A DNA stretch of 41,775 nucleotides from a virus: the UHGV virus genome UHGV-0209075, one strand, 5' to 3'. Position 1 is the stretch's first letter; every line of letters starts with the position of its first letter. Position numbers and translations under genes: made by a program. Shown here piece after piece: positions 2,355 to 40,479 of this stretch. The notes beneath the pieces were generated by a model. It saw nothing but the letters and a program-made list of their open reading frames with translations, ran no database searches and was not told the DNA's origin.

Positions 2355-3156
2355 GGCTCACCCCCTTGCTGACTGGTTTAACCTGTGCCCTGACGTGATT
2401 TACGTGACGGGCGAATTTCTGCTCCCACTGAACCTGCGTGAAAACTTTCCCCTCCGCTGCCCAGTAGTCCCGGAAAGTGGCAAGTTCAGCAGGCGTAAAT
2501 TCCGGCTCCGACAGAGCCACTCCCCACAGTGCAGCCCGCCGTCGAAAATCCGGCGACGGATGCCAGCCATCGGTCATCGGAAATTTCCCGATGGGTTCGC
2601 TCAGGCCTTCCAGGTAATCAGGTTCCGCTGCCTGCAACGGCACGCCATTCGACTCACTGATCGGAGCACTCTCGCGCACGCGCGCGTTATGTGTGGGGTT
2701 TAATTCTTTTAGATCTGTATCTTTATTAGTTGCTTTTGTGTTGGCATCATGTTCAAACACAACACCAACATCTGTTTGAACACCTGTTAAATCTCTCTCT
2801 TGTTTTGTTTGAACATCTGCTTCCTTTCTGCTTCTTCTGGCTTGAACAGATGCTTTTCCGGCGGCTGATTTTTTGGTTAATTTTTCCCTGACTGATGCCA
2901 GATCTTCCTCAATCCGAAGATGCACCCATTCATCGCCGTTATCGCAAAAAAACTCCCTCAAGGATGGTTCCACATCAGCCCATCGCTCGTTAGTCAGACG
3001 GGCAATTTTTGCCAGCCTGTTTTTGGGTATTGGCTTCCCTGTTTGCCAGTAATTGAACATCAGCAACAAATACGCACCGTGCTCCTCTGCTGACAAATGC
3101 ATGGTGTCAGCCAGGTAATCAGCTATGTACAGTTGCATGTATGGTAATGCGGCCAT
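2143..3156 (-). CDS. replication initiator O-like protein with DUF1376/YdaU-type N-terminal domain
   Basis: N-terminus MAALPYMQLYIADYLADTMHLSAEEHGAYLLLMFNYW typical of phage replication-initiation DUF1376 proteins; ATG 3156 preceded by GAGGTGA; synteny cro-cII-O-P. Confidence 0.6.
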   Translation of the reverse strand: MAALPYMQLYIADYLADTMHLSAEEHGAYLLLMFNYWQTGKPIPKNRLAKIARLTNERWADVEPSLREFFCDNGDEWVHLRIEEDLASVREKLTKKSAAGKASVQARRSRKEADVQTKQERDLTGVQTDVGVVFEHDANTKATNKDTDLKELNPTHNARVRESAPISESNGVPLQAAEPDYLEGLSEPIGKFPMTDGWHPSPDFRRRAALWGVALSEPEFTPAELATFRDYWAAEGKVFTQVQWEQKFARHVNHVRAQVKPVSKGVSHAAAPGGTASRAVQEIRAAREQWERENGFISDGNGVEAVGAHGGGLFEPLDPEERGRTFEALDCTDWRDD

Positions 3157-3235
3157 GTTCACCTCATCTGGTGCCGAACCTTCCTCTGGTTATAATCTGT
3201 GATCCCCCAATCAACAGAACCAGAGGAGGTTCGAC

Positions 3236-3631
3236 ATGGATTTTGCAACTATCACAAGTAGCGTTGTGTTGAGTGCATGTGTTGCTGGCGTGGTTTCGCT
3301 GGTTAATGGTGCCTGGCAACGCAAATCGGAACGAACCATTGAAGCGCAACGCCGGGCTGCTGAAGCCAGGGCTAAAATAAGAGAAATGGCTCTCACCCTC
3401 GCATTGAAAGAATGGGAACTTCACCAAACCATATCGAAGACAAAGGGATATGGTGTCAGCGGCCCGGAAGTTTACGTCTTTCGATACTTTCGTATGCTCA
3501 ACCTGATGGAAGAAGACAAATTCACGATTGAAAATCTCAGACTGATCCAGCACGACTCCATGTGCGCCGTCGCAGCGATTCAGGCAGAGATCGAGCGATA
3601 CCGGGAGAAAAACGGCCTCCCGATGCCATAA
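3236..3631 (+). CDS. membrane-anchored protein of unknown function (cargo gene antisense to the replication operon)
   Basis: ATG 3236 preceded by AGAGGAGG (6-nt spacer) and a TATAAT hexamer at 3191-3196; residues ~5-24 hydrophobic helix, then Arg/Glu-rich helix and ~70-aa C-terminal domain. Confidence 0.6.
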   Translation: MDFATITSSVVLSACVAGVVSLVNGAWQRKSERTIEAQRRAAEARAKIREMALTLALKEWELHQTISKTKGYGVSGPEVYVFRYFRMLNLMEEDKFTIENLRLIQHDSMCAVAAIQAEIERYREKNGLPMP

Positions 3632-3867: not shown

Positions 3868-4293
3868 TTAGTGCATCACCACGGCATTTCCCGCCGGACC
3901 ACCACGATTCATCTGATTGAAACCAGCGATCGCCACTGCAACAAAATCATCAGCGTCTCTCACCAGTCGTTCCCGCGTCTCCACCAGTTCCCGAAACCAG
4001 GCTGAACTGTGGCTGCGCATTCGGGCCACCAGCAGAGGCGGCATTGCTTTTTCGATCGCTGGTAACAACGCCTGAATTTTTTTAACCGCATCAGGGGTGT
4101 CTTTCTCCACCCAGCGGAAAATTTTCTGAGTATTGCGAGCCAGGGCTTCCGGATGGCTGTCGTCATACAGTTCCGGGAACGTCATTCCCAGCTCGAAATA
4201 CGCTTTGGTAATTTTCGCAGCCGGTACTTTTTCGCCGTCCGGATGCGCCCAGGCATTCATCGCCATGCGGATGTGTTCATGCTTGATTTTCAT
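3868..4293 (-). CDS. CII-position regulator, resembles YdaT-family proteins of Rac-like prophages
   Basis: 141-aa ORF translationally coupled to cro-like gene (start/stop overlap at 4290-4293); N-terminus MKIKHEHI; synteny. Confidence 0.5.
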   Translation of the reverse strand: MKIKHEHIRMAMNAWAHPDGEKVPAAKITKAYFELGMTFPELYDDSHPEALARNTQKIFRWVEKDTPDAVKKIQALLPAIEKAMPPLLVARMRSHSSAWFRELVETRERLVRDADDFVAVAIAGFNQMNRGGPAGNAVVMH

Positions 4294-4505
4294 GAATCAT
4301 TCTTTCCTTCGTTCGAGGTGCTATCCTGCTTCTTGTAAAGTTCTGGGTTGTATTTCAATTCACCGTTAGTAATTTCATCCAGTTCCATTGCGCGAAGTTT
4401 GGGAATAACTGCTTGCCACCGCACAACAGCCACATGTGAAATTCCAAGAGCCTCAGCTACTAGTCGCTTTTTTTTGAAATAGCGCAGAACATCATCTTTG
4501 AACAT
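4290..4505 (-). CDS. Cro-like HTH regulator (YdaS/Cro type)
   Basis: 71-aa ORF divergent from repressor; HTH segment KKRLVAEALGISHVAVVRWQ; AGGAGA SD 5 nt upstream of ATG 4505. Confidence 0.7.
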   Translation of the reverse strand: MFKDDVLRYFKKKRLVAEALGISHVAVVRWQAVIPKLRAMELDEITNGELKYNPELYKKQDSTSNEGKNDS

Positions 4506-4534
4506 AAAACTCTCCTGTTATTTCGAGCAGGAGG

Positions 4535-4596
4535 GTAACAATAGTTACATAGCAATGTCAACCATAGCAACATCACTTGGTAGTAACATTGGTTAC
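4535..4596. promoter_or_regulatory. OR-like operator region: two 14-bp dyads GTAAC-N4-GTTAC (4535-4548, 4583-4596) in the repressor/cro intergenic region
   Basis: GTAACAATAGTTAC and GTAACATTGGTTAC, centre-to-centre 48 bp; the second abuts the repressor ATG at 4597. Confidence 0.5.
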
Positions 4597-5271
4597 ATGA
4601 AAAACACTATCAGCGAACGTATTCGGAATCGTCGAAAAGACGTTGGATTAACCCAACAGCAGGTTGCGAAAGCAATCGGCATATCTCGTGTATCCGTAAC
4701 AAAATGGGAAAATGGCTCTTCAAAACCTGACGGTGAGAATTTGCATCTACTGTCAAAATTGCTTTCCAAATCTCCTGAATGGATTCTTTATGGAAAGGAC
4801 GGTCACGATAAAACCGATGATCTGCGTCTGAATCAGTATCTTTACATTAGTGACAACATCGCCCGGTTGCCCGTTTTAACGTGGGAACAGGCTGGTTATT
4901 GGGATATGAGTTGTCCAGTAACCGAGATTCCTGGCATTAAGAATTGGGTTGATGTCATGACAAAAACCGCTGAAAACTCTTTTTTATTGCATGTTGAGGG
5001 AGATGCGATGACAAACTCTAACGGCCTCCCAACCATCCCCGATGGATCTACCGTGCTGATCACACCATGCTCAAGTAACATTAGAGAACTGGTGGGAAAA
5101 ATAATCTTAATCCAATTGGAAGGAACGCCAAACGTAACACTAAAAAAAGTTGCGATTGACGGACCAAACATCTATCTGTTGTCACTGAATCCGCTTTACA
5201 AACCCATCGAACTGAATGGTGGTTACACCATTAAAGGTAAAGTTTCACAAATACATCAATACTTAGACTGA
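4597..5271 (+). CDS. cI: CI-type repressor (HTH_XRE N-domain + LexA/S24-like C-domain) with Ala at the nucleophile position (GDAM instead of GDSM)
   Basis: HTH LTQQQVAKAIGISRVSVTKWENG; C-domain motifs HVEGDAMTNSNG and VTLKKV align by eye with lambda CI EVEGNSM / FTFKKL; start taken at ATG 4597 (ORF-track ORF begins at TTG 4498). Confidence 0.8.
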   Translation: MKNTISERIRNRRKDVGLTQQQVAKAIGISRVSVTKWENGSSKPDGENLHLLSKLLSKSPEWILYGKDGHDKTDDLRLNQYLYISDNIARLPVLTWEQAGYWDMSCPVTEIPGIKNWVDVMTKTAENSFLLHVEGDAMTNSNGLPTIPDGSTVLITPCSSNIRELVGKIILIQLEGTPNVTLKKVAIDGPNIYLLSLNPLYKPIELNGGYTIKGKVSQIHQYLD

Positions 5272-5362: not shown

Positions 5363-5682
5363 AACGGCATACCAACCCACCCCGCCCCACAGAATGCAGG
5401 GCAATACTTCGAGTTACCAGGCAGTGGTCAGGGGTTAAGTAGCCAGCCCGAGGCGTAAGAACATGACGGCAGGGTTCAACTTTAATAACTATGCAGCAGG
5501 TTTTTGTTCCGCTACCCCGGCGTTAAGGGGAAACAGAGGATTTCTCAGTGGGCGAAGTCAAACATCAGAATGGAAGGCATCCCGGGATCGGCAAAGAAGC
5601 AGCAATGGCGCTTTATATTGACATCAGCGCCATTGCCGGACAGGTAAGAATTATCAGAGCGGTAACTAAGCGGTATGCGCCT

Positions 5683-5883
5683 TTACTTCAGAAAGTCTCT
5701 GGTGAGTGCACCGAAGATATTGTCAACGATTTCGTCATCGAACTGCGAGGACTCATCTTCAGTTACAAGGTGACCACAATTTTTGCAGATGGCTCCCGCG
5801 AAACTGTCAGAGCCCTGCGGCTTAAAGGATGTGTCAAAGACTTCGCCACCACATTCTGGGCAAGAAAACTTGATTGTACTCAT
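5683..5883 (-). CDS. small zinc-ribbon protein (CPECGG...CKNCGH), acidic C-terminus; function unknown
   Basis: 66-aa ORF from ATG 5883 preceded by AGAGGA (8-nt spacer); two CxxCG pairs; a 9-bp-stem hairpin (about 5603-5634) lies downstream; convergent with repressor. Confidence 0.5.
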   Translation of the reverse strand: MSTIKFSCPECGGEVFDTSFKPQGSDSFAGAICKNCGHLVTEDESSQFDDEIVDNIFGALTRDFLK

Positions 5884-5975
5884 AACCAATTTCCTCTCGA
5901 GTAACAGACCCCTCAGAGGATACCACCTCGCCTGACGTGGTTAAAAGCAGGCAACGCTAACCACAAGGAGCCGAC

Positions 5976-6194
5976 ATGCAGAAACGAGAACCCGTCATCA
6001 TCGCGCCAGACTATACCGATGATGAACTTTATGAGTGGATGCGCCAGAAAATTAATGCAGCGCAGGATCTGAAATGGGCCAATGAAGCCAAGGCTAAGCA
6101 GGCTGAAAATCTGTCCGCTCTGGAGCAGGATATCACCAGGCTGGAAAAAGCAGCGGCATTAAGCATTGCCAGAATGATTACATACCAGCGTTAA
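5976..6194 (+). CDS. small coiled-coil protein (72 aa); function unknown
   Basis: ATG 5976 preceded by AAGGAG (5-nt spacer); divergent from zinc-ribbon gene with 92-bp intergenic region. Confidence 0.5.
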   Translation: MQKREPVIIAPDYTDDELYEWMRQKINAAQDLKWANEAKAKQAENLSALEQDITRLEKAAALSIARMITYQR

Positions 6195-6283: not shown

Positions 6284-6578
6284 ACTGACAGTTTACTGAA
6301 AGGATATTTCTCTGAAAAGTCAGAGCATAACGCGAAAGCACACGGAGAAGCTCGTCTCTCTGTACTTTGTCGTTAAATTTAATTCGACCGTGCGCTTCCG
6401 GTTGTGGCAATCCGCGAAATGGCGCGGCGGTAAGTATGGCGGGGTTATTCCTTCCCCTTGAGGACACCGGGTTGTCAGGCTGACCATACGCTTAAGTGAC
6501 AGCCACGCCACAATATCCATGTGTAGTCTTTGGTGGCATCAGTTCTACTCCGTGACTGCTCTGCCGCCCTTTTTAAAG

Positions 6579-6732
6579 TGAATTTTGTGATGCGGTGAAT
6601 GCGGCTCAGCGCACGCGGAACAGTTAAAACAAGCGGTCTTTTACGGGCGTAACGGGAATGCTCTGTATCCGGCGTTAATTGTTAACTGGTTAACGTCACC
6701 TGGAGGCACCAGGCACCGCATCACAAAATTCA
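6579..6732. repeat. 154-bp element bounded by a perfect 19-bp inverted repeat (TGAATTTTGTGATGCGGTG / CACCGCATCACAAAATTCA)
   Basis: Arms at 6579-6597 and 6714-6732 are exact reverse complements; right arm ends 5 nt before the GAGGA SD of the 6750 ORF; interior contains GTTAACTGGTTAAC and CCTGGAGGCACCAGG palindromes. Confidence 0.6.
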
Positions 6733-6749
6733 TTGTTGAGGACGCGATA

Positions 6750-6938
6750 ATGGAAACGTTATTACCAAACGTTAATACGTCTGAAGGTTGTTTTGATATT
6801 GGTGTTCTGCTCAGTAACCGGGAGTTTACGGAAGATGCCATTAAGATGAGAAAATATGAACCTTATCTTCTCAATGATAATTCCATACTTTCCAGAATTG
6901 CCCTTCTTGAACTTGGTATTATCGGAGAACAGCAGTGA
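6750..6938 (+). CDS. small protein (62 aa), AT-rich cargo gene; function unknown
   Basis: ATG 6750 preceded by GAGGA (7-nt spacer); lower GC than neighbours. Confidence 0.4.
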   Translation: METLLPNVNTSEGCFDIGVLLSNREFTEDAIKMRKYEPYLLNDNSILSRIALLELGIIGEQQ

Positions 6939-7123
6939 CTTCAGCATTTGCGCTGGTGATGACCGTTTTTCTTATAACGGGTGAGCCACAAAATGTGATT
7001 ACCGGAATTTATGACAGTAAGTCATCCTGCATTCAGGTAAGGGACGAACAAAAAATCCCCGGTGAATGCCTCCCGTTAAAAAAAGTATCGCTGAACCTGA
7101 ATAACGAAATACCGGCTGGATAA
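6935..7123 (+). CDS. small protein (62 aa) with N-terminal hydrophobic segment and two Cys; function unknown
   Basis: GTG 6935 overlaps the upstream stop (GTGA) and is preceded by GGAG (7-nt spacer), indicating translational coupling. Confidence 0.4.
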   Translation: MTSAFALVMTVFLITGEPQNVITGIYDSKSSCIQVRDEQKIPGECLPLKKVSLNLNNEIPAG

Positions 7124-7218
7124 CCCGCCAGCCATATTAACGCCATACCAACGGATTAAAAATGCCAGCAATGGCAGGGATTCGTTCACCCTGAAATCTG
7201 TAATGAGGTTAAAACACA

Positions 7219-9693
7219 ATGAGTAAAATCTTTATTTGCGCTGCTATTCCTGACGAACAGGCCATAAAAGAAGATAGCGCTGTTGCGGTGGCCACTGCCA
7301 TTGAAGCCGGTGATGAACGTCGCGCCCGCGCAAAATTTCACTGGCAATTCCTGGAACATTATCCGGCTGCTCAGGACTGCGCTTATAAATTTCTTGTTTG
7401 CGAGGATAAACCCGGTATACCCCGCCCTGCCCTCGATTCCTGGGATGCTGAATATATGCAGGAAAACCGCTGGGATGAGGAATCCGCTTCCTTTATTCCG
7501 GTCGAACCAGAATCCGATCCGATGAACGTCAATTTTGACAAGCTGTCCCTTGAAGTACAGAACGCGGTCCTGGTTAAGTTCGGTACATGTGAAAACATCA
7601 CCGTTGATATGGCGATTGACGCGCAGGAATTACTGCAGGAAGACGTTGCTACCTTTGACGGGCATATCGTTGAAGCACTGATGAAAACGCCTGAAATTAA
7701 CGCTATGTATCCGGAACGCAAACTGTTCGCTATCGGATGGGTTAAACACAAATGTAATCCGGGTGCCAAATGGCCAGAAATTCAGGCTGAATTACGTAAC
7801 TGGAAAAAACGGCAGGACGCAGAGCGCAAAGAGACTGGAAAATACACGTCTGTTGTTGATCTCGCCCGCGCCAGAGTCAATCAACAGCACACTGAAAACT
7901 CAGCAGGAAAAATCAACCCAGTCACTGCCGCCATTTGTCGCGAATACAAGCAGACATGGAAAACGCTGGATGAAGAACTGGCCTACGCTCTCTGGCCTGG
8001 CGATATTGATACCGGAAACATTGACGGCAGCATCCATCGCTGGGCAAAAAATGAAGTTATCGACAAAGATCGCGAAGACTGGAAGCGCATTTCCGCATCA
8101 ATGCGCAAACAACCCGATGCCGTTCGCTACGACCGTCAGACTATTTTTGGCCTTGTCCGTGAGCGTCCGATCGACATTCACAAAGATCCCGTAGCACTGA
8201 ACAAATACATCACTGAATACCTGACTACCAAGGGCGTGTTTGAAGATGACGAAGGAACAAATCAGGGCACAGCTGGTACTCTCCCGTCACCAGTACCAGA
8301 AACTGATGCAGTGGAAACGGCAATGCCGGACAACGAAAAAACCGAATGCGAAGTGGAAGACGAACCATCTGTAGAGCGTGAGGGACCGTTCTACTTCCTT
8401 TTCACCGATAAGGACGGCGAAAAATACGGTCGCGCAAACAAACTTTCTGGTCTGGAAAAAGCACTGGCCCTGGGAGCTACGGAAATCACAAAAGAGGAAT
8501 ACTTCGCACGTAAAAACGGCACGTACTCAGGTTCACAACAAAATACTGGTGCATCTGACACGATCGCACAACCAGAGCCGGTAAAAGTTACCGCTGACGA
8601 AGTAAACAAAATTATGCAGGCAGCCAATATCAGCCAGCCTGACGCCAATAAGTTGCTTGCTGTATCACGTGGTGAATTTGTTGCAGGGATTAGCGCCCCG
8701 AATGATCCGAAATGGGTGAAGGGGATTGAAACCCGCGATTCAGTGAATCAGAACCAGCAAGAAACGGAACAGAACGGCCAGAAAGCGGAACAAAACAGCC
8801 CAAATGCGTTACAAAACGAGCCAGAAACGAAACATCCTGAACCAGTGGCGCAACAGGAAGTGGAAAAAGTCTGCACCGCCTGCGGTCAGACCGGCGGCGG
8901 CAACTACCCTGATTGTGGCGCGGTGATGGGCGACGCAACATACCAGGAAACATTCGATGAAGAGTATCAGGTTGAAGTTCAGGAAGATGATCCGGAGGAA
9001 ATGGAAGGCGCTGAACATCCACACAAGGAGAACACTGGCGGCAATCAGCATCACGATAGCGATAATGAAACTGGCGAGACGGCAGATCACTCAATTAAGG
9101 TGAACGGTCATCAAGAAATCACATCCACCAGCAGGACGTGTGACCATCTAATGATCGACCTTGAAACCATGGGAAAAAATCCTGATGCCCCGATCATCTC
9201 AATAGGTGCAATATTTTTCGATCCGCAAACCGGAGATATGGGACCGGAATTTAGTAAGACTATCGATCTGGAAACTGCTGGCGGAGTCATTGATCGGGAC
9301 ACCATTAAATGGTGGCTTAAGCAATCACGCGAAGCGCAATCTGCCATTATGACCGATGAAATCCCGTTAGATGATGCACTGTTACAATTGCGGGAATTTA
9401 TCGACGAAAACTCCGGTGAATTTTTTGTTCAGGTCTGGGGAAATGGAGCCAACTTCGACAACACGATTTTGCGCCGTTCATACGAACGGCAGGGGATCCC
9501 CTGCCCGTGGCGTTACTACAACGATCGCGATGTACGCACAATCGTTGAGCTGGGGAAGGCCATAGACTTCGATGCCAGAACGGCTATTCCATTCGAAGGT
9601 GAGCGCCATAATGCACTTGATGACGCCCGTTACCAGGCAAAATACGTTTCAGCTATCTGGCAAAAACTGATCCCGAGTCAGGCTGATTTTTAA
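7219..9693 (+). CDS. large early-left protein with C-terminal DEDDh (DnaQ-like) 3'-5' exonuclease domain
   Basis: Exo motifs MIDLETMG, WGNGANFDNTIL and HNALDDARYQAKY in roughly residues 645-810; Glu/Gln/Asn-rich acidic linker; N-terminal ~340 aa unassigned. Confidence 0.7.
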   Translation: MSKIFICAAIPDEQAIKEDSAVAVATAIEAGDERRARAKFHWQFLEHYPAAQDCAYKFLVCEDKPGIPRPALDSWDAEYMQENRWDEESASFIPVEPESDPMNVNFDKLSLEVQNAVLVKFGTCENITVDMAIDAQELLQEDVATFDGHIVEALMKTPEINAMYPERKLFAIGWVKHKCNPGAKWPEIQAELRNWKKRQDAERKETGKYTSVVDLARARVNQQHTENSAGKINPVTAAICREYKQTWKTLDEELAYALWPGDIDTGNIDGSIHRWAKNEVIDKDREDWKRISASMRKQPDAVRYDRQTIFGLVRERPIDIHKDPVALNKYITEYLTTKGVFEDDEGTNQGTAGTLPSPVPETDAVETAMPDNEKTECEVEDEPSVEREGPFYFLFTDKDGEKYGRANKLSGLEKALALGATEITKEEYFARKNGTYSGSQQNTGASDTIAQPEPVKVTADEVNKIMQAANISQPDANKLLAVSRGEFVAGISAPNDPKWVKGIETRDSVNQNQQETEQNGQKAEQNSPNALQNEPETKHPEPVAQQEVEKVCTACGQTGGGNYPDCGAVMGDATYQETFDEEYQVEVQEDDPEEMEGAEHPHKENTGGNQHHDSDNETGETADHSIKVNGHQEITSTSRTCDHLMIDLETMGKNPDAPIISIGAIFFDPQTGDMGPEFSKTIDLETAGGVIDRDTIKWWLKQSREAQSAIMTDEIPLDDALLQLREFIDENSGEFFVQVWGNGANFDNTILRRSYERQGIPCPWRYYNDRDVRTIVELGKAIDFDARTAIPFEGERHNALDDARYQAKYVSAIWQKLIPSQADF

Positions 9694-9751: not shown

Positions 9752-9955
9752 ATGAGTAGCTTATTTTTAACCGAAGATGAATTGCTAATATTAACGGGCT
9801 GCAAATATGCAAGCCACCAGCGAAAATGGTTAACGGAAAACGGGCTTCCGTTCTATACCAATCGTAGTGGCAAACCGATTGTCAGCCGGGATCTATTTAC
9901 CTGCAATAAAACTTTACCACCACGCGAGGTAGAGCCGAATTTTGGTGCAATCTGA
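9752..9955 (+). CDS. excisionase-like small DNA-binding protein (candidate recombination directionality factor)
   Basis: 67-aa ORF whose TGA overlaps the integrase ATG (TGATG at 9953-9957); position immediately upstream of int; weak SD. Confidence 0.45.
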   Translation: MSSLFLTEDELLILTGCKYASHQRKWLTENGLPFYTNRSGKPIVSRDLFTCNKTLPPREVEPNFGAI

Positions 9956-10980
9956 TGGGAAGACGAAGGAAAAATCCTGAACACGAAAAACTACCTCCAA
10001 ATGTATATCCAAATAAATATAGTTATGTATGGAAACCAACATCCAGAGAATCTGTCACACTAACCGCCATCAAGGATGGTTTAGCTGCTTTATGGAAAAG
10101 GTATGAGGAAACTGTAAATAATCGCGATCGCGCAATGACATTCGGTCGCTTGTGGGAAAAATTCCTCGCCAGCGCCTATTACAGTGACCTCAGTCCAAGA
10201 ACACAAAAAGATTATCTGCAACATCAAAAAAAGTTGCTTGCCGTATTCGGTAAGGTGCCGGCAGATTCCATAAAACCAGAACACATCCGTCGATACATGG
10301 ACCAGAGAGGGGGGCAGAGTAAAACGCAAGCCAACCATGAAAAAAGCAGTATGTCCCGCGTTTACAGTTGGGGATATGAGCGAGGGTACGTGAAGGCTAA
10401 CCCATGTGCAGGTGTAAGTAAATTCAAGGCCAAAAACCGCGAACGATATGTAACCGACAAAGAATACCAGGCAGTATTAAGCGTTGCACCTCTTCCTGTT
10501 TTTATCGCAATGGAAATTGCCTATCTGTGTGCAGCGAGGGTTTCCGATGTGTTATCGCTGAAATGGGAGCAGATTGGAAACGACGGGATCTTTATCCAGC
10601 AAGGGAAAACAGGGAAAAAACAGATAAAAGCATGGAGTCCACGATTACAGGCGGCGATCGAAAAAGCAAAACAGTTACCAACATCCGCCTATGTAATCAG
10701 CAATCAATACGGCAACCGATATATGTACAAAGGCTTTAACGAAATGTGGGTAGAAGCAAGAAATCGCGCAGGCAAAATTTCAGGTATTTTAACCGACTTC
10801 ACCTTTCATGATCTGAAGGCGAAAGGAATTTCAGACTATGAAGGAAGCAGCCGGGATAAGCAACTTTTCTCTGGTCACAAAACCGAGGGGCAAGTGCTAA
10901 TCTATGACAGGAAGGTTAAAGTTTCACCGACACTTGATGTCCCGTTACCTGAAAATATTCCAAGAAAATATTCCAAGTAA
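9955..10980 (+). CDS. int: tyrosine integrase, lambda Int family
   Basis: N-terminus MGRRRKNPEHEKLPPNVY resembles lambda Int MGRRRSHERRDLPPNLY; 341 aa; adjacent to att core. Confidence 0.85.
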   Translation: MGRRRKNPEHEKLPPNVYPNKYSYVWKPTSRESVTLTAIKDGLAALWKRYEETVNNRDRAMTFGRLWEKFLASAYYSDLSPRTQKDYLQHQKKLLAVFGKVPADSIKPEHIRRYMDQRGGQSKTQANHEKSSMSRVYSWGYERGYVKANPCAGVSKFKAKNRERYVTDKEYQAVLSVAPLPVFIAMEIAYLCAARVSDVLSLKWEQIGNDGIFIQQGKTGKKQIKAWSPRLQAAIEKAKQLPTSAYVISNQYGNRYMYKGFNEMWVEARNRAGKISGILTDFTFHDLKAKGISDYEGSSRDKQLFSGHKTEGQVLIYDRKVKVSPTLDVPLPENIPRKYSK

Positions 10981-10987
10981 TTCCAAG
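10952..10987 (+). repeat. direct repeats ATTCCAAG (x3, including tandem 13-mer AAAATATTCCAAG x2) at the int 3' end; fourth copy at 11199-11206; candidate Int arm-type sites
   Basis: Copies at 10957-10964, 10970-10977, 10980-10987 and 11199-11206, all in the same orientation, flanking the att core on both sides. Confidence 0.4.
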
Positions 10988-11032
10988 TGTGATTTTTGTC
11001 ACTGACTTAATGATGTGTAAGTGATTGAATTT

Positions 11033-11093
11033 TGGCGGAGAGAGGGGGATTTGAACCCCCGGTGGAGTTGCCCCCACTCCGGTTTTCGAGACC
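11033..11093 (-). other. attP core: 3' ~61 nt of a tRNA-Ser(CGA)-like gene (anticodon loop to CCA) without the 5' half
   Basis: Minus-strand GGTCTCGAAAACCGGAGTGGGGGCAACTCCACCGGGGGTTCAAATCCCCCTCTCTCCGCCA has anticodon loop, long variable arm, T-arm GGTTCAAATCC and acceptor 3' strand plus CCA; sequence 5' of it is not tRNA-like. Confidence 0.6.
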
Positions 11094-11394
11094 GATGATA
11101 CAGAGTCGAAAAATCAAAGAGTTAAAAACTTTTCTTGGAATAAATGTCTTAAAATCGTACACGAAAAATCAATAAATTACATAACATTAAAGAAGAATAT
11201 TCCAAGCCTTCTTGAGGCCACCACCTGTTTTCAGGTGTCATTCAGACGTGATTTACCCCAGATTGGGTAAGCACGCTTTTTTTCTCAGCTTATTCCGTTT
11301 TGCCTGTGTGTTGAATAATTCCACTGCAGTTATATAAAATCGGTAACGGCTGGAAATCATTCAATACTAGCACTATCGAAAGTTAACCAGCCAA

Positions 11395-11440
11395 CCGCAG
11401 TATCCTGTCATGACAAGTTACTGCGGCTTTTTACTTTTTA
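11395..11440 (+). terminator. strong hairpin + U-tract beyond attP (tI/sib-like position)
   Basis: CCGCAGTA...TACTGCGG 8-bp outer stem with internal TGTCA/TGACA pairing, followed by CTTTTTACTTTTTATATTT. Confidence 0.5.
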
Positions 11441-11443
11441 TAT

Positions 11444-11731
11444 TTAACGGATCAACATCCAGATCAGCAGACACGCCACCACCGGCACAGCAAAATCCAT
11501 CAGGCTTGCCACATCCCACGCGCGTGGATCAAAACCGCCCCACCACGGCATGTTAATCCGCTTGCCATGCCCGAACATTTCAATCCAGCGATATTCTGCC
11601 TGGGTGTGTTCACGCGCAATGAAGAACGTACAACCGGCTATCGCCCCGTAAGCCCAGTTTCCGGTAAAAAGACCAGCCAGCCCCTGTACCGCCACAGCAC
11701 AAATTGCATGAAGTATCGGCGTGATATCCAT
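11444..11731 (-). CDS. small integral membrane protein (95 aa); function unknown
   Basis: ATG 11731 preceded by AAGGGGAG; hydrophobic N- and C-terminal segments; last gene of the minus-strand late arm before attP. Confidence 0.5.
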   Translation of the reverse strand: MDITPILHAICAVAVQGLAGLFTGNWAYGAIAGCTFFIAREHTQAEYRWIEMFGHGKRINMPWWGGFDPRAWDVASLMDFAVPVVACLLIWMLIR

Positions 11732-11740
11732 CTGCTCCCC

Positions 11741-12019
11741 TTAAAACCACTCCCTGAGCGGGCGCTCTGGTGTAACCACCCACTCACGGAACACGGAATC
11801 CTCAAATCCATCGTCAAGAAGACGGATATTAACAAAGTACCCTTCGTTTCGCGTGTATTCTGGTTCTCCGTCATCAGAAACATCTGTCTCCCTGAACGTA
11901 AAACCAATCTCATCAACCAGAACGGCATTCTGCAGCTCTTCGTCCTCTTCCCAGTTAAGTTTCCTGAGAAATGCCCTGAAATCTGCTTTATCACTGAAAC
12001 GCAACGTGAAATCTCTCAC
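11741..12019 (-). CDS. small acidic protein (92 aa); function unknown
   Basis: GTG 12019 overlaps the stf stop (GTGA) and is preceded by GGGGAGG (7-nt spacer). Confidence 0.45.
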   Translation of the reverse strand: MRDFTLRFSDKADFRAFLRKLNWEEDEELQNAVLVDEIGFTFRETDVSDDGEPEYTRNEGYFVNIRLLDDGFEDSVFREWVVTPERPLREWF

Positions 12020-14079
12020 TCCACAACCTCCCCAAGCTGCGCATCTGTTAGCTCTTTATGCCAGAGACGAAAATTCCTCACATGCCCAAATAAATGGCGT
12101 AATCCTGCTGTAGTTTGTCCACCAATGCGAATGGTTGCTGTACTCCGGATATATTCCCATTTGGTTTTAGTTTCGCTGCTTAACTTACCGTTACTGACTA
12201 CACATGTGGACCGTTCGGACTTTACCCGCATACCAATAAGCATTTTTTCCAGCCCGGCATTTTCATTTATTCGTCGGTCTGAACCACCTATATCGCAATA
12301 CGGAAAACCGTCGTACCCACCTGATGAACCAAACCCCATTACGATCCCCGCTCCGGTTTGATGACCGCCGGTATCAAAAACACGCGGCGCTACATTTGGC
12401 GTTTTATACCAGTTCTTATGTACCTCACAAAGAACCGTAAAAGGAAGATTATAAAGGTTATTCTTGATTGGGACTGTCACCATATCGCTTGCCCGCGTTG
12501 CCGGTGCCGTCCCCGTAACAATAAAAGATGATGCGCCTGTACCAGCCTCAATCTGTGGAGTGGTTACATCGAGATAATCCCCTGATGTAACCATCTGCCC
12601 TGTATCCGGAGAATACTGGACAAAACCACCAACCGTATTTTCTGTTGTATCTGCTTTTAATGTAGCCTCAAAAAATATCCAGCCAGTTGCATCATCCTTA
12701 ACAGACCTTGCTGTAACACGGCTTGTCTGACCTGTCTTGCTAATTATGCGGGTGGTAAGGTTCAGGTTTGCTGCTCCTATTGATGTCCTTACCTCCCCAT
12801 CATAATGTTCAAATAAAATACGAACGGCGATATTATCAACTTCACTTTTTACCCGACAGGATATAGTTACATGCTTTTCGTCCCCTGAAGTATCAACCCC
12901 TCCGGTACTCGAATACAGTCCGATAATGGTATGCGCTTTACTTGTACCAACAATCGAATCCTGTACGACAAACCGACCATAATTAAACCCGAAACTATCT
13001 GTGCCTGTTTCTGTAACGTCCAGTGAAGTTGACTTATTCCACTTCGAAGGGTCTGTACTGTTCTGGAAGAAGTTCGTTCTTTGTCCCTCAATAAGCAGGC
13101 CATCACACTCAAATCGCGGCTCATTAATTTCCGCCGTTTTCAGTTCGCCAGATTTGTTGATATATGTTGCCGTTGATGCGCGACTGAAATTAACCTGTTT
13201 ATCACTGGCAACCTGAACCACATTATCACCAATCTTCACTTTTTTATAACCCGGAGAATAGCCCGTAATCATATCCAGCGAATCATTAAAGGGTATCCAC
13301 ACATCCGGCAGCGGCTGTAAAACATATCTGTACGGCTCTGCTGTCTGGTTTGCGTATTCTCTGGCAGCATCTTCACTTGCTTTTGCTGCCGTCTGGCTTG
13401 CTGCCGATGCTTTCGCCGAGTTCGCCGCCGCTGTTTCGCTCACCTTTGCGTTGGCTTCACTGTCTTTGGCATTCGTCTCACTGGTTTTCGCTGCCGTCTG
13501 GCTGGATTTTGCGTTTTTTTCGCTGGCCTTTGTGGCTGTCTCGCTATTTTTCGCGCTGGTTTCTGATTTTTTGGCTGCTGTCGCGGAGTTTGCCGATGCA
13601 GTCTGCGAGGCCGCTGCCGCCTGTGCGCTGTTAGCTGCATTCGTTTCTGAGGTTTTCGCCGCATTCTTCGATGAGGCTGCTGCCGTTTCGGATTTCTTTG
13701 CCGCCGCTGCACTCTGTGATGACGCTCCGGCATGACGTGCCACTTCATTCACCATCAGCTCAAAACGGCGCAGTGCCTCCGGACGAACATCATCCTCCGT
13801 CATGGCGCCGAGAAAATCATTCAGCGTACCTGGTCTGGAACCTTCATAGACGGTAATGGTCCCGGCATGTGAAGGCGGAAAATCTTCAACCAGCAGGGTG
13901 ACGCTGTACTGGCCATACTCAACATCCATGCTGTAACGCCCGGCTTCATCCGGATTTTCAGAGGCCACCGTGTTCACCACCACCGTGCTGCTGGTCCGTC
14001 TGGCCTTCAGCACAATGGTGCAGTTCTGTACTGGTTTTCCTGTGCCATCTTTAAGCACGCCAGAAATTTTTACTGTCAT
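12016..14079 (-). CDS. stf: side tail fibre protein
   Basis: N-terminal ~130 aa very close by eye to lambda Stf (VKISGVLKDGTGKPVQNCTI...), Ser/Ala/Lys/Glu-rich repeat shaft, divergent C-terminal domain. Confidence 0.85.
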   Translation of the reverse strand: MTVKISGVLKDGTGKPVQNCTIVLKARRTSSTVVVNTVASENPDEAGRYSMDVEYGQYSVTLLVEDFPPSHAGTITVYEGSRPGTLNDFLGAMTEDDVRPEALRRFELMVNEVARHAGASSQSAAAAKKSETAAASSKNAAKTSETNAANSAQAAAASQTASANSATAAKKSETSAKNSETATKASEKNAKSSQTAAKTSETNAKDSEANAKVSETAAANSAKASAASQTAAKASEDAAREYANQTAEPYRYVLQPLPDVWIPFNDSLDMITGYSPGYKKVKIGDNVVQVASDKQVNFSRASTATYINKSGELKTAEINEPRFECDGLLIEGQRTNFFQNSTDPSKWNKSTSLDVTETGTDSFGFNYGRFVVQDSIVGTSKAHTIIGLYSSTGGVDTSGDEKHVTISCRVKSEVDNIAVRILFEHYDGEVRTSIGAANLNLTTRIISKTGQTSRVTARSVKDDATGWIFFEATLKADTTENTVGGFVQYSPDTGQMVTSGDYLDVTTPQIEAGTGASSFIVTGTAPATRASDMVTVPIKNNLYNLPFTVLCEVHKNWYKTPNVAPRVFDTGGHQTGAGIVMGFGSSGGYDGFPYCDIGGSDRRINENAGLEKMLIGMRVKSERSTCVVSNGKLSSETKTKWEYIRSTATIRIGGQTTAGLRHLFGHVRNFRLWHKELTDAQLGEVVE

Positions 14080-36085: not shown

Positions 36086-36090
36086 GCATG

Positions 36091-36121
36091 TAAAAAGGCC
36101 CCAACACATGTGCGTGGGGCC
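36091..36121 (-). terminator. hairpin + U-tract on minus strand between cargo ORF and holin
   Basis: GGCCCC-13 nt-GGGGCC followed on minus strand by UUUUUAC. Confidence 0.45.
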
Positions 36122-36517
36122 TGAGAGTATACATGGTTTCAGTCAACTGCATGGTGCCGGGTGCCTCCCGGTGAATTCAGTACCAGCACCTGAATCCGCG
36201 ATTATCCCATATACCTACTCGCTGATTGCCCCTCCGCACAGGGGGATTCACCATGCCAGTTTCTTTTAACAAACTCCCCGCAAACCAGACAACAGTCAAC
36301 CGCCTGAATTGTGAAGTATTTAAAAATTTCTCCCGCTAACTGATACCCGGCTAACAGTCTGGCGTTTTCTTTTTCAGCAACGGGAAAGCAACAACCACCA
36401 CACCCGCCACCAGCACACCGTCAGCCAGCACTGACATTATCCGGCTGCTGCAATGCCACTCACAAAAACAGTAAGCAATCACTTTTTACCGTAACAAGTG
36501 ATAATCCAGATATGTAT

Positions 36518-36844: not shown

Positions 36845-36984
36845 TGGACCGTATAACAAACACTCAATCAATACTTAACAGAACTTTTATTTTTGACAAA
36901 CATATAATATTTTCAACAATATCCTGAGCCAGGTATATTTCAGTATAAGGCTCTGCCGGAAGGAATCTGGAAGAATGAATATAG

Positions 36985-37058
36985 CGCGCTGTACTGGATT
37001 CGAACCAGTGACCGATTGCTTAGAAGGCAATTGCTCTGTCCGGCTGAGCTAACAACGC
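36985..37058 (-). tRNA. tRNA-Arg (anticodon UCU)
   Basis: Hand-folded cloverleaf: acceptor GCGTTGT/ACAGCGC, D-stem GCTC/GAGC, anticodon stem ATTGC/GCAAT with loop CTTCTAA, T-arm ACTGG-TTCGAAT-CCAGT. Confidence 0.8.
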
Positions 37059-37158
37059 TGAATACCGATAATGGACCGCCATCGGGGACCCGCCCCCGCA
37101 CCAACAACCCTGTTATCGCGTCGTCTGCTCTTCCTGATAAGCTAATGGCGGTTTGTGA

Positions 37159-37234
37159 TGGTGGCCCTTGCTGGATTTGAACCAGCGACCTGGCGATTAT
37201 GAGTCGCTCGCTCTCACCACTGAGCTAAAGGGCC
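37159..37234 (-). tRNA. tRNA with CAU anticodon (Ile2/lysidine-type or Met), CCA encoded
   Basis: Hand-folded cloverleaf: acceptor GGCCCTT/AAGGGCC, anticodon loop CTCATAA, T-arm GCTGG-TTCAAAT-CCAGC; resembles E. coli ileX by eye. Confidence 0.8.
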
Positions 37235-40070: not shown

Positions 40071-40226
40071 TTACTCCTCAGGTTCGTAGACTGTGAAGAC
40101 AGCGACCTCCGTCTGGCCGGTTCGAATTCGTACCTCGCAGAGGTCTTTCCTCGTTACCAGTGCCGTCACTATGACGGTTAAACAGATGACGATCAGGGCG
40201 ATTAACATCGCCTTTTGCTGCTTCAT
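40071..40226 (-). CDS. hok: Hok/Gef-family type I toxin
   Basis: MKQQKAMLIALIVICLTVIVTALVTRKDLCEVRIRTGQTEVAVFTVYEPEE is near-identical to E. coli HokD/RelF as I recall it; AAGGAG SD. Confidence 0.8.
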   Translation of the reverse strand: MKQQKAMLIALIVICLTVIVTALVTRKDLCEVRIRTGQTEVAVFTVYEPEE

Positions 40227-40283
40227 AGCCTGCTTCTCCTTGCCTTTCGGCACGTAAGAGGCTAACCTAGATTTGCCGTTCAT
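40071..40283 (-). CDS. mok: mok-like in-frame N-terminally extended reading frame over hok
   Basis: ATG 40283 opens a 70-codon frame ending at the hok stop, as I recall for chromosomal mok/hok loci. Confidence 0.5.
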   Translation of the reverse strand: MNGKSRLASYVPKGKEKQAMKQQKAMLIALIVICLTVIVTALVTRKDLCEVRIRTGQTEVAVFTVYEPEE

Positions 40284-40347
40284 AGATTGAGCCTCAGATT
40301 AATGTTAAGCGTCTTGCAGGACGCGTAATGTTAACTGGGGCTTTTCT

Positions 40348-40383
40348 CTATCTGCCTTTGGTGTTCATGCCTGAGGCAGATAG
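40348..40383. other. 10-bp perfect-stem hairpin in the hok/mok upstream region
   Basis: CTATCTGCCT-16 nt-AGGCAGATAG. Confidence 0.4.
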
Positions 40384-40479
40384 CCTCAAGCACCCGCAGC
40401 AATTCTACTTAAGTTAGATAAGCTTTTCTATGGTATTCTCTCAGCGTCCCGTAAATACAGTCTCGGCTCATCATTTTTA

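Follow-up and report, generated by a model that had tools for sequence, protein, structure and literature searches.

Upon induction, the small early-operon proteins lambda Kil, Rac KilR and T7 Gp0.4 bring about a transient block of host cytokinesis, for which Kil needs ZipA. In the Qin (Kim) cryptic prophage of Escherichia coli K-12, the dicBF operon is expressed as a ydfABC-dicFB-ydfD co-transcript from which the small RNA DicF is processed (PMC10448788). DicF uses its 3' region to pair with ftsZ and its 5' end to pair with xylR (PMC5069750). DicB of K-12 binds MinC, and the complex is directed to the septal ring via ZipA, where the Z ring is disassembled; furthermore, DicB inhibits ManYZ in a MinC-dependent manner and thereby blocks the entry of lambda-type DNA (PMC6832061). 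The N-terminal segment of about 14 residues and L5 are essential for DicB, K2 can be substituted and the last eight amino acids are dispensable; residues other than these eight do contribute to activity, and the protein is highly toxic (PMC4967827). The gene that follows dicB encodes YdfD, whose overexpression lyses only cells able to divide, lysis being prevented by co-expression of DicB or SulA. YdfD binds IspG, even when devoid of cysteines, and overexpression of ispG or addition of HMBPP relieves lysis; this mechanism comes from a single study using overexpression and tagged proteins (PMC8835842).

We analysed here a stretch of 41,775 nucleotides (UHGV virus genome UHGV-0209075, hereafter the window), which reads as the circularly permuted and apparently complete genome of a lambdoid phage. 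An earlier note, made from its sequence, had described two overlapping small ORFs (ORF1 and ORF2) and proposed that they form a two-component cargo module devoted to host takeover, division inhibition, exclusion or toxin/immunity. Our analysis indicates that these ORFs are, with very high probability, dicB and a gene of the ydfD family (DUF1482), i.e. the distal small-protein genes of a dicBF-type early-left operon from a lambdoid Escherichia phage. No evidence contradicting this identification was obtained.

Layout of the two overlapping genes

The features of the locus are listed in Table 1. The position and length of both ORFs, their two Shine-Dalgarno sequences and the overlap of the GTG codon with the upstream stop are all found in the sequence as the earlier note described them. 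The lower GC content that it mentioned was also recovered: 0.404 for the pair (0.376 for ORF1 and 0.434 for ORF2), versus 0.48-0.50 for the flanks and 0.505 for the whole window. Only 3% of 374-nt segments have a GC content equal to or below that of the pair.

Table 1. Features of the dicBF-type region and their coordinates in the window
Feature	Coordinates	Strand	Description and basis
DicC/Cro-like gene	4290-4505	-	Divergent from the repressor gene; NCBIfam
Prophage repressor gene	4498-5271	+	DicA-like HTH and LexA/S24-type C-terminal domain; NCBIfam DicA, LexA/UmuD-type models
ydfC homologue	5976-6194	+	Length and position as K-12 ydfC; PHROG 1744, E=1.4e-38
DicF small RNA	6518-6569	+	Rfam RF00039, 58.3 bits (gathering score 48), E=2.3e-10, full model 1-52
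Shine-Dalgarno sequence of dicB, GAGGA	6738-6742	+	7 nt 5' of the ATG; read from sequence
dicB (ORF1)	6750-6938	+	Cell-division inhibition protein DicB, 62 aa; 62 codons, ATG start, read from sequence; Pfam PF05358, NCBIfam NF049927, K-12 homology
Shine-Dalgarno sequence of the ydfD-like gene, GGAG	6924-6927	+	Inside the 3' end of dicB, 7 nt 5' of the GTG
dicB stop/ydfD-like start overlap, GTGA	6935-6938	+	TGA of ORF1 and GTG of ORF2; read from sequence
ydfD-like gene (ORF2)	6935-7123	+	DUF1482 family protein, 62 aa; 62 codons, GTG start, read from sequence; Pfam PF07358, PHROG 1092, K-12 YdfD homology
Gene of an 824-aa protein	7219-9693	+	C-terminal 3'-5' exonuclease domain; PF16473 (Rv2179c-like), E=1.5e-67, residues 643-814

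The GTGA overlap suggests that ORF2 is translationally coupled to dicB, and its internal Shine-Dalgarno sequence could also allow independent initiation. K-12 carries AAGGA at the equivalent position, despite a nucleotide identity of about 55% there. Folding of the dicB/ydfD junction revealed no notable RNA structure suggesting regulated coupling (z=0.42). Furthermore, no promoter-like site was found on the + strand between positions 5200 and 7400. This agrees with expression being driven by the upstream operon promoter alone, as reported for K-12 (PMC10448788).

ORF1 encodes DicB

ORF1 matches the Pfam DicB profile over its whole length (residues 1-62 of 62, E=3.7e-38, 129.5 bits for a gathering cut-off of 27) and reaches 111 bits with the NCBIfam DicB model, whose cut-off is 100. 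It shares 61% identity with K-12 DicB (BLASTP). The exact protein is found on at least 1000 public contigs under the name "cell division inhibition protein DicB", and both RefSeq and GenBank label this frame dicB. The N-terminal motif LLPNVNTSEG, including L5, is invariant in DicB; in an alignment of 14 diverse members, L5, P6, N7, N9-G13 and F15 are invariant. The N-terminal segment required in K-12 DicB is intact in the protein from the window (METLLPNVNTSEGCF), all essential residues being kept. Hence, all the DicB traits that can be checked on a sequence are present, namely the profile match, the N-terminal segment and the place in a dicBF-type operon. Since the N-terminal functional region is conserved, we firmly expect, by analogy with K-12, that this DicB has the MinC, ZipA and ManYZ activities. 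A point against such a transfer is that the C-terminal half is another allele than in K-12, where residues other than the last eight add to activity (PMC4967827). A HMMER search of PDB sequences with DicB gave no match at E<=1.

ORF2 encodes a YdfD-like protein of the DUF1482 family

Residues 4-61 of ORF2 match the DUF1482 profile from end to end (positions 1-57 of 57, E=2.8e-15, 56.4 bits for a cut-off of 25), and the match with PHROG 1092 has an E-value of 1e-32. ORF2 is 48% identical to K-12 YdfD (E=5e-22), which is named "lysis protein" in RefSeq. Its exact sequence is also found on at least 1000 public contigs, where it is named "DUF1482 family protein". In an alignment of 22 DUF1482 sequences, with identities down to 34%, C32, C45, L7 and G16 are invariant and F5, A6, T10 and V11 are at least 90% conserved, so that a FALVxTV motif is conserved in the family. 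As for DicB, every trait that the sequence can display is found: the profile match, the cysteine pair with the N-terminal motif and the start codon overlapping the dicB stop. In an exhaustive search of representative proteins, the top-scoring long proteins (P0132, 640 aa, and P0136, 838 aa) were treated as spurious, both being tandem-repeat proteins whose scores are summed over 7-10 weak stretches.

YdfD-type activities, i.e. division-dependent lysis and IspG inhibition, may tentatively be carried over to ORF2, with much less confidence than for DicB, since ORF2 and the one characterised member share no more than 48% identity and the link with IspG comes from one study. More generally, functional knowledge of DUF1482 proteins comes from a single allele, which has been the subject of very few studies.

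Operon and phage context

The DicF gene lies 180 nt upstream of ORF1; the 3' two-thirds of the RNA are nearly identical to those of K-12 DicF and about 13 nt at the 5' end are diverged. By homology, DicF would share its transcript with both ORFs and act as a second division inhibitor, antisense to ftsZ. The order ydfC, DicF, dicB, ydfD-like gene and exonuclease gene is that of the K-12 Qin dicBF operon, and the same order with the same 4-nt overlap is found in E. coli TUM13064 and in PPompW phages, where the ydfC homologue is labelled ydfC. The earlier note had treated the two ORFs as a self-contained unit; they instead belong to a ydfC-dicF-dicB-ydfD-exonuclease series with DicF directly upstream. 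Its statement that the pair directly precedes a large exonuclease-domain gene is correct. RefSeq annotates the product of this gene as "3'-5' exonuclease". It is the intact counterpart of ydfE, with which its start region aligns; in K-12 Qin, ydfE is the last gene and a pseudogene cut by IS2.

Upstream of the operon, the repressor matches the NCBIfam DicA model at residues 35-121 (E=4.9e-23) and LexA/UmuD-type models at residues 153-252, and its true start codon is probably located downstream of position 4498. This repressor presumably controls the left operon that includes dicF, dicB and the ydfD-like gene. The rest of the window encodes replication proteins, RusA, antiterminator Q, two tRNAs, morphogenesis proteins and a tail fibre protein, and the integrase and a DUF4224 gene converge on the tail genes. 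A late lysis region, whose functions were assigned by position alone, lies at about 34.3-36.0 kb on the - strand. Since the phage has its own late lysis region, the DUF1482 protein should be viewed as an accessory of the early operon and not as the lysis system.

In the early left operon, the dicB and ydfD-like genes lie after the immunity region and ahead of the recombination/exonuclease genes. They thus form the distal part of this operon, in the positional equivalent of lambda kil, as the earlier note had guessed. This location in a leftward early operon, and the fact that DicB, like Kil, blocks the FtsZ ring in a ZipA-dependent way, might suggest that the two ORFs are homologues of Kil and cIII that occupy the same slot. 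However, a Pfam scan at E<=1 retrieved DicB and DUF1482 alone, so that the resemblance is positional and functional, without homology, and we give almost no credence to a common origin with these lambda genes. The earlier note had considered clear kinship with Kil/cIII-type proteins to be decisive against its proposal: a known Kil-type function was indeed found, that of DicB, and homology with Kil or cIII was absent.

Distribution, conservation and selection

Megablast matched the region in 4730 of 5426 complete E. coli genomes, in which it is annotated as dicB, DUF1482 family protein and 3'-5' exonuclease. It is also present, with 96.5% identity, in PPompW and Stx2a-converting phages. The 4-nt overlap between dicB and the DUF1482 gene was found in all 91 loci compared (K-12, other Escherichia species, Shigella and 80 IMG/VR contigs), as GTGA in 48, ATGA in 40 and ATAA in 3; this sample leans to alleles like those of the window and indicates conservation in the Escherichia dicB lineage, not independent events. 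Among the 89 complete loci, ydfD is frameshifted or truncated in about 5-6, and ATA replaces its start codon in three. These broken copies indicate that the gene is dispensable in some lineages.

Comparison with K-12 DNA reveals a mosaic. Identity with K-12 is 87-100% over the 3' part of DicF, the leader of dicB and the start of this gene, up to about codon 31, the leader (about 6575-6749) being almost identical apart from a short indel block. From the middle of dicB to about 40 nt beyond the ydfD stop, identity drops to 51-59%, and near identity is restored before the exonuclease gene. Codons 32-62 of dicB, with 51% nucleotide identity, correspond to a different allele. Both genes are nevertheless under purifying selection: dN/dS against the K-12 homologues is 0.45 for dicB (0.31 for codons 32-62) and 0.55 for ydfD, and values below 1 across the diverged block indicate that both reading frames are maintained.

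These data also bear on whether the ORFs might be chance open frames in AT-rich non-coding DNA, as their shortness (62 codons), their low GC content and the GTG start of one of them could suggest. This can practically be dismissed, since both ORFs have family matches that exceed curated cut-offs, dN/dS is below 1 over a block in which synonymous change is saturated, length, frame and overlap are kept in the 91 loci, and the K-12 homologues have been characterised experimentally.

Relationship between DicB and the DUF1482 protein

Protein alignments distinguish two types of DicB C-terminal half, with occasional recombinants, the type carried by the window being the commoner one among the sampled phage contigs. 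Within the 91-locus sample, each type is found with its own YdfD type, so that the two alleles are always co-inherited. This association, the divergence of a single block running from mid-dicB through ydfD, the overlap kept in 91 of 91 loci and the prevention of YdfD lysis by DicB in K-12 (PMC8835842) could all be viewed as marks of a dedicated toxin/antidote module, with ORF2 as the toxin and the variable C-terminal half of DicB neutralising it by direct protein contact. We consider such a module very improbable. SulA, which inhibits division and is unrelated to DicB, protects from YdfD lysis as well (PMC8835842), and protection is therefore explained by division arrest itself. Linkage alone would lead neighbouring stretches of DNA to be inherited together, and the putative antidote is itself highly toxic (PMC4967827). 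In addition, a PADLOC scan of both ORFs gave no match at E<=0.01, and Pfam and NCBIfam returned no toxin-antitoxin family for either of them.

The distribution of the DUF1482 family points in the same direction. No DicB motif was detected within 3 kb of distant DUF1482 members (P0149 and P0157 types) in any of 81 other prophage loci, and K-12 harbors a chromosomal DUF1482 gene, yebW, that adjoins yebV and pphA. Since DUF1482 genes are found without dicB, the pairing characterises the Escherichia dicBF operon, not DUF1482 as a family. The toxin/immunity idea of the earlier note thus keeps a loose counterpart in the prevention of YdfD lysis by DicB in K-12, without any match to a toxin-antitoxin or defence model.

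The diverged block might also correspond to a co-adapted pair. Given its identity of only 48% with YdfD and its predicted soluble domain, for which no relative was retrieved among solved structures, ORF2 may have another target than IspG or directly touch the variable C-terminal half of DicB. We regard this as very improbable; if true, the allele pair would act as one genuine toxin/modulator unit, and the two proteins would not be independent effectors.

The hydrophobic N-terminus of the DUF1482 protein

ORF2 does begin with a hydrophobic stretch and contains two cysteines (C32 and C45), as the earlier note stated. The hydrophobic run A4-I14 (AFALVMTVFLI) spans about 11-12 residues; averaged over 11 of them, its Kyte-Doolittle hydropathy is 2.81. 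On this basis, ORF2 could be a membrane-anchored or exported protein (holin-like, involved in superinfection exclusion or carrying a periplasmic disulfide), its N-terminus being a transmembrane helix or a signal peptide. The two cysteines, invariant across the family, would then form the periplasmic disulfide, and the small residue after the run (TG/EP, the slash marking the presumed cut) may resemble a signal-peptidase site. The first paper on K-12 ydfD (Masuda 2016) reportedly called the N-terminal segment a hypothetical transmembrane domain, which also speaks for this possibility.

Nevertheless, export or anchoring appears unlikely. The run is short compared with a membrane span of about 19 residues, and the maximal 19-residue Kyte-Doolittle mean of ORF2 is 1.39, below the classical threshold of 1.6. 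No lysine or arginine precedes the run in ORF2, and most aligned members have no basic residue there either. Moreover, the segment is kept as a sequence motif (F5 A6 L7 T10 V11, then G16) beyond mere hydrophobicity. The AlphaFold2 model, built with the 22-sequence alignment (mean pLDDT 81.4, pTM 0.63), places residues 5-12 in a beta-strand pairing with residues 18-26, followed by a helix (29-39), a strand (43-47) and a second helix (48-56). Finally, the published target of YdfD, IspG, is cytoplasmic, and cysteine-less YdfD still binds it (PMC8835842).

According to the model, ORF2 would be a small soluble beta-beta-alpha-beta domain with the hydrophobic segment as its first strand, which agrees with the cytoplasmic partner reported for YdfD. 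When compared with the PDB by Foldseek, this model retrieved nothing significant (best E=1.7), and a HMMER search of PDB sequences with the DUF1482 profile gave no match at E<=1. The hydrophobic segment is therefore probably neither a signal peptide nor a membrane anchor, as far as hydropathy and the predicted fold indicate, and the signal-peptide or transmembrane character that the earlier note proposed to examine is disfavoured. The predicted fold suggests that what has been called an N-terminal transmembrane segment is a core beta-strand, as would suit a protein with a cytoplasmic target.

Proposed mode of action

The following scheme takes each of its biochemical steps from the work on K-12. 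The operon would be silent as long as the prophage repressor is intact; the S24 domain of this repressor suggests SOS control, in which induction would occur via a cleavable repressor. Upon induction or infection, one transcript would run through ydfC, DicF, dicB, ydfD and the exonuclease gene. DicF would be excised from it and would repress ftsZ translation. DicB would bind MinC, and the complex would reach the septal ring via ZipA and disassemble the Z ring, leading to filamentation without division. The DicB-MinC interaction would also block ManYZ and hence exclude lambda-like phages that inject their DNA through ManYZ. Translation of the DUF1482 protein would rely on reinitiation at the GTG by ribosomes that have just finished dicB, or on ribosome entry at the internal GGAG. 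If this protein behaves like YdfD, it would stay in the cytoplasm, bind IspG of the MEP pathway and deplete the isoprenoid carrier needed for cell-wall and membrane synthesis. As it would lyse dividing cells only, the co-produced DicB would restrain its effect.

Division inhibition and exclusion, two of the functions listed in the earlier note for its cargo module, are thus retained through ORF1, since K-12 DicB does both (PMC6832061). The idea of an uncharacterised cargo is not: homology searches lead to dicB and ydfD, a pair already known from the dicBF operon. RefSeq annotates this pair, public collections contain its exact sequences in large numbers, and experimental work has characterised its K-12 homologues. 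The finding carries little weight as a discovery; its useful outcome is a correct label, that of a dicF-dicB-ydfD segment in a lambdoid phage that appears complete.

Comparison with known systems

Lambda Kil has a slot comparable to that of the pair, in a left operon and ahead of the recombination/exonuclease genes. DicB acts by redirecting MinC and not by direct binding of FtsZ (PMC6832061), and it has no sequence relationship with the phage FtsZ-ring inhibitors Kil, KilR and Gp0.4. The single-gene lysis proteins (phiX174 E, Qbeta A2 and LysM) have been likened to YdfD in that they inhibit an enzyme of cell-wall precursor synthesis and that only growing or dividing cells lyse (PMC8835842). 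However, small phages rely on them alone for lysis, whereas the DUF1482 protein is an accessory, and they share no homology with it.

Within the DUF1482 family, the paralogous YebW (b1837) and prophage members of the P0149 type are not linked to dicB, unlike ORF2. The closest relative with described activity is K-12 YdfD (b1576), which resembles ORF2 in its size (63 aa, against 62 here), its hydrophobic N-terminal motif, its two invariant cysteines, its EQKIPG.C core, its C-terminal EIPAG and its start overlapping the dicB stop. The two differ by their start codon, GTG in ORF2 and ATG in K-12 ydfD, and share 48% protein identity.

DicB of the K-12 Qin (Kim) cryptic prophage (b1575) is similar to ORF1 in its 62-aa length, its full-length profile match and its motif xTLLPNVNTSEGCF. 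The likeness extends to its place 3' of DicF, its nearly identical leader and the 4-nt overlap of its stop with the next gene. The allele of the C-terminal half (codons ~32-62) is different, being 'YEPYLLNDNSILSRIALLELGIIGEQQ' here versus 'QERELLNKICIVSMLARLRLMPKGCAQ' in K-12, and residue 2 is E here versus K in K-12, E being the majority residue in the family. Lastly, K-12 dicB belongs to a cryptic remnant, whereas the dicB gene described here is carried by an apparently complete phage genome with a LexA/S24-type repressor.

Unequal conservation of dicB and ydfD

The two genes of the dicB-ydfD pair are not equally conserved. Among 91 loci (including the IMG/VR contigs L011-L090 and locus L009), decay is more common in ydfD than in dicB, the latter being intact in all 91. 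In three loci, the start codon of ydfD is replaced by ATA at the overlap (ATAA). Furthermore, ydfD is frameshifted or truncated in about 5-6 loci, the Shigella flexneri copy being only 18 aa long, and a few loci encode a YdfD protein that lacks one of its two conserved Cys.

The pair also carries a mosaic block, in which the identity to K-12 falls from ~87-100% to 51-59%. This block starts in the middle of dicB, at about codon 32, and identity to K-12 is regained ~40 nt past the ydfD stop codon. Moreover, the protein alignment includes recombinant DicB proteins with mixed halves, for instance P0227.

Two hairpins are found at the end of ydfD (fold z=-2.39), both devoid of a T-tract on the plus strand. 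Since the longest transcript detected in K-12 stops after ydfD (PMC10448788), these hairpins could indicate where the transcript is processed or where pausing occurs.

Features of the window considered in this section
Feature	Position	Strand	Remarks
Repressor gene	4498-5271	+	start listed as TTG
118-aa ORF	5548-5904	+	PHROG 21318, E=3.6e-66
ECs_2282-family CxxC zinc-ribbon protein, 68 aa	5683-5889	-	NCBIfam, 57 bits versus cut-off of 37
DicF sRNA	6518-6569	+	
Mosaic block	~6845-7165		
Hairpin 1	7114-7133	+	covers ydfD stop codon
Hairpin 2	7151-7185	+	3' of ydfD
Exonuclease-domain gene	7219-9693	+	824 aa
Integrase gene	9955-10980	+	
264-aa ORF	11567-12361		no Pfam match
STnc100 sRNA	36086-36285	-	139 bits
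tRNA-Arg(tct) and tRNA-Met(cat)	36984-37234	-	downstream of Q antiterminator gene
sok antisense RNA (hok/sok-type locus)	40221-40395	-	in nin-like region

DUF1482 genes outside the dicB context

The DUF1482 gene of other enterobacterial prophages lacks dicB as a neighbor and is followed by a gene encoding a small CxxC...C protein (MQK.CGYCRK...), as seen at positions 2956-3354 of locus L091 and 2968-3356 of locus L092. The representative protein P0155 is a DUF1482 member with a C-terminal fusion of a sequence related to this small protein. This fusion and the neighboring gene hint at a different functional partnership for the DUF1482 members that are not associated with dicB. In three divergent members of the DUF1482 alignment (P0157, P0159 and P0162), a further pair of Cys occupies the columns of F12 and P18 of the ydfD product of the window. 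In the AlphaFold2 model, F12 closes the first strand and P18 opens the second one. This pair is consistent with the adjacency of the two strands predicted by the model.

Genome layout and overlapping upstream ORFs

The window appears to be a complete, circularly permuted genome of a lambdoid phage. Since the integrase gene and the tail-fibre genes (minus strand, with their end at ~12016) are convergently oriented, attP should lie between them, in the junction region ~10980-12016.

Downstream of the repressor gene, the 118-aa ORF and the zinc-ribbon ORF overlap on opposite strands, each having family support. Public records are in conflict, RefSeq annotating the minus-strand ORF in the E. coli genome TUM13064 and the PPompW phages carrying an annotation of the plus-strand ORF. 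If the minus-strand gene is real, an antisense gene would be located within the early-left operon.

Comparison with K-12 and related loci

In the repressor, a DicA-like HTH is joined to a C-terminal S24 domain of LexA/UmuD type, whereas DicA from K-12 (135 aa) corresponds to the HTH part only. This S24 domain suggests that the dicBF-type operon of the window may be SOS-inducible. The listed start of the repressor is probably too far upstream.

The sRNA of the window shares with DicF from K-12 (locus L001, 3383-3435) the 3' region used by the latter for pairing with ftsZ, but the first ~13 nt are almost wholly different (CCATGTGTAGTCT in the window versus TTTCTGGTGACGT in K-12). In K-12, xylR pairing involves the 5' end, and pykA also drops out as a target with the DicF3 mutation, which hits this pairing (PMC5069750). 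Since the xylR-pairing part is the one that diverged, the secondary targets of DicF from the window may differ from the K-12 set. The TUM13064 locus, otherwise 97% identical to the window, has a DicF 5' end of K-12 type.

The exonuclease-domain gene encodes an intact protein that aligns at its N-terminus with the pseudogene ydfE of K-12. Its middle part (residues 448-626) partially matches the RecE/exodeoxyribonuclease VIII model, far under the cut-off, and an Rv2179c-like DEDDh 3'-5' exonuclease domain forms the C-terminus. The counterpart of this gene in the PPompW phages is frameshifted.
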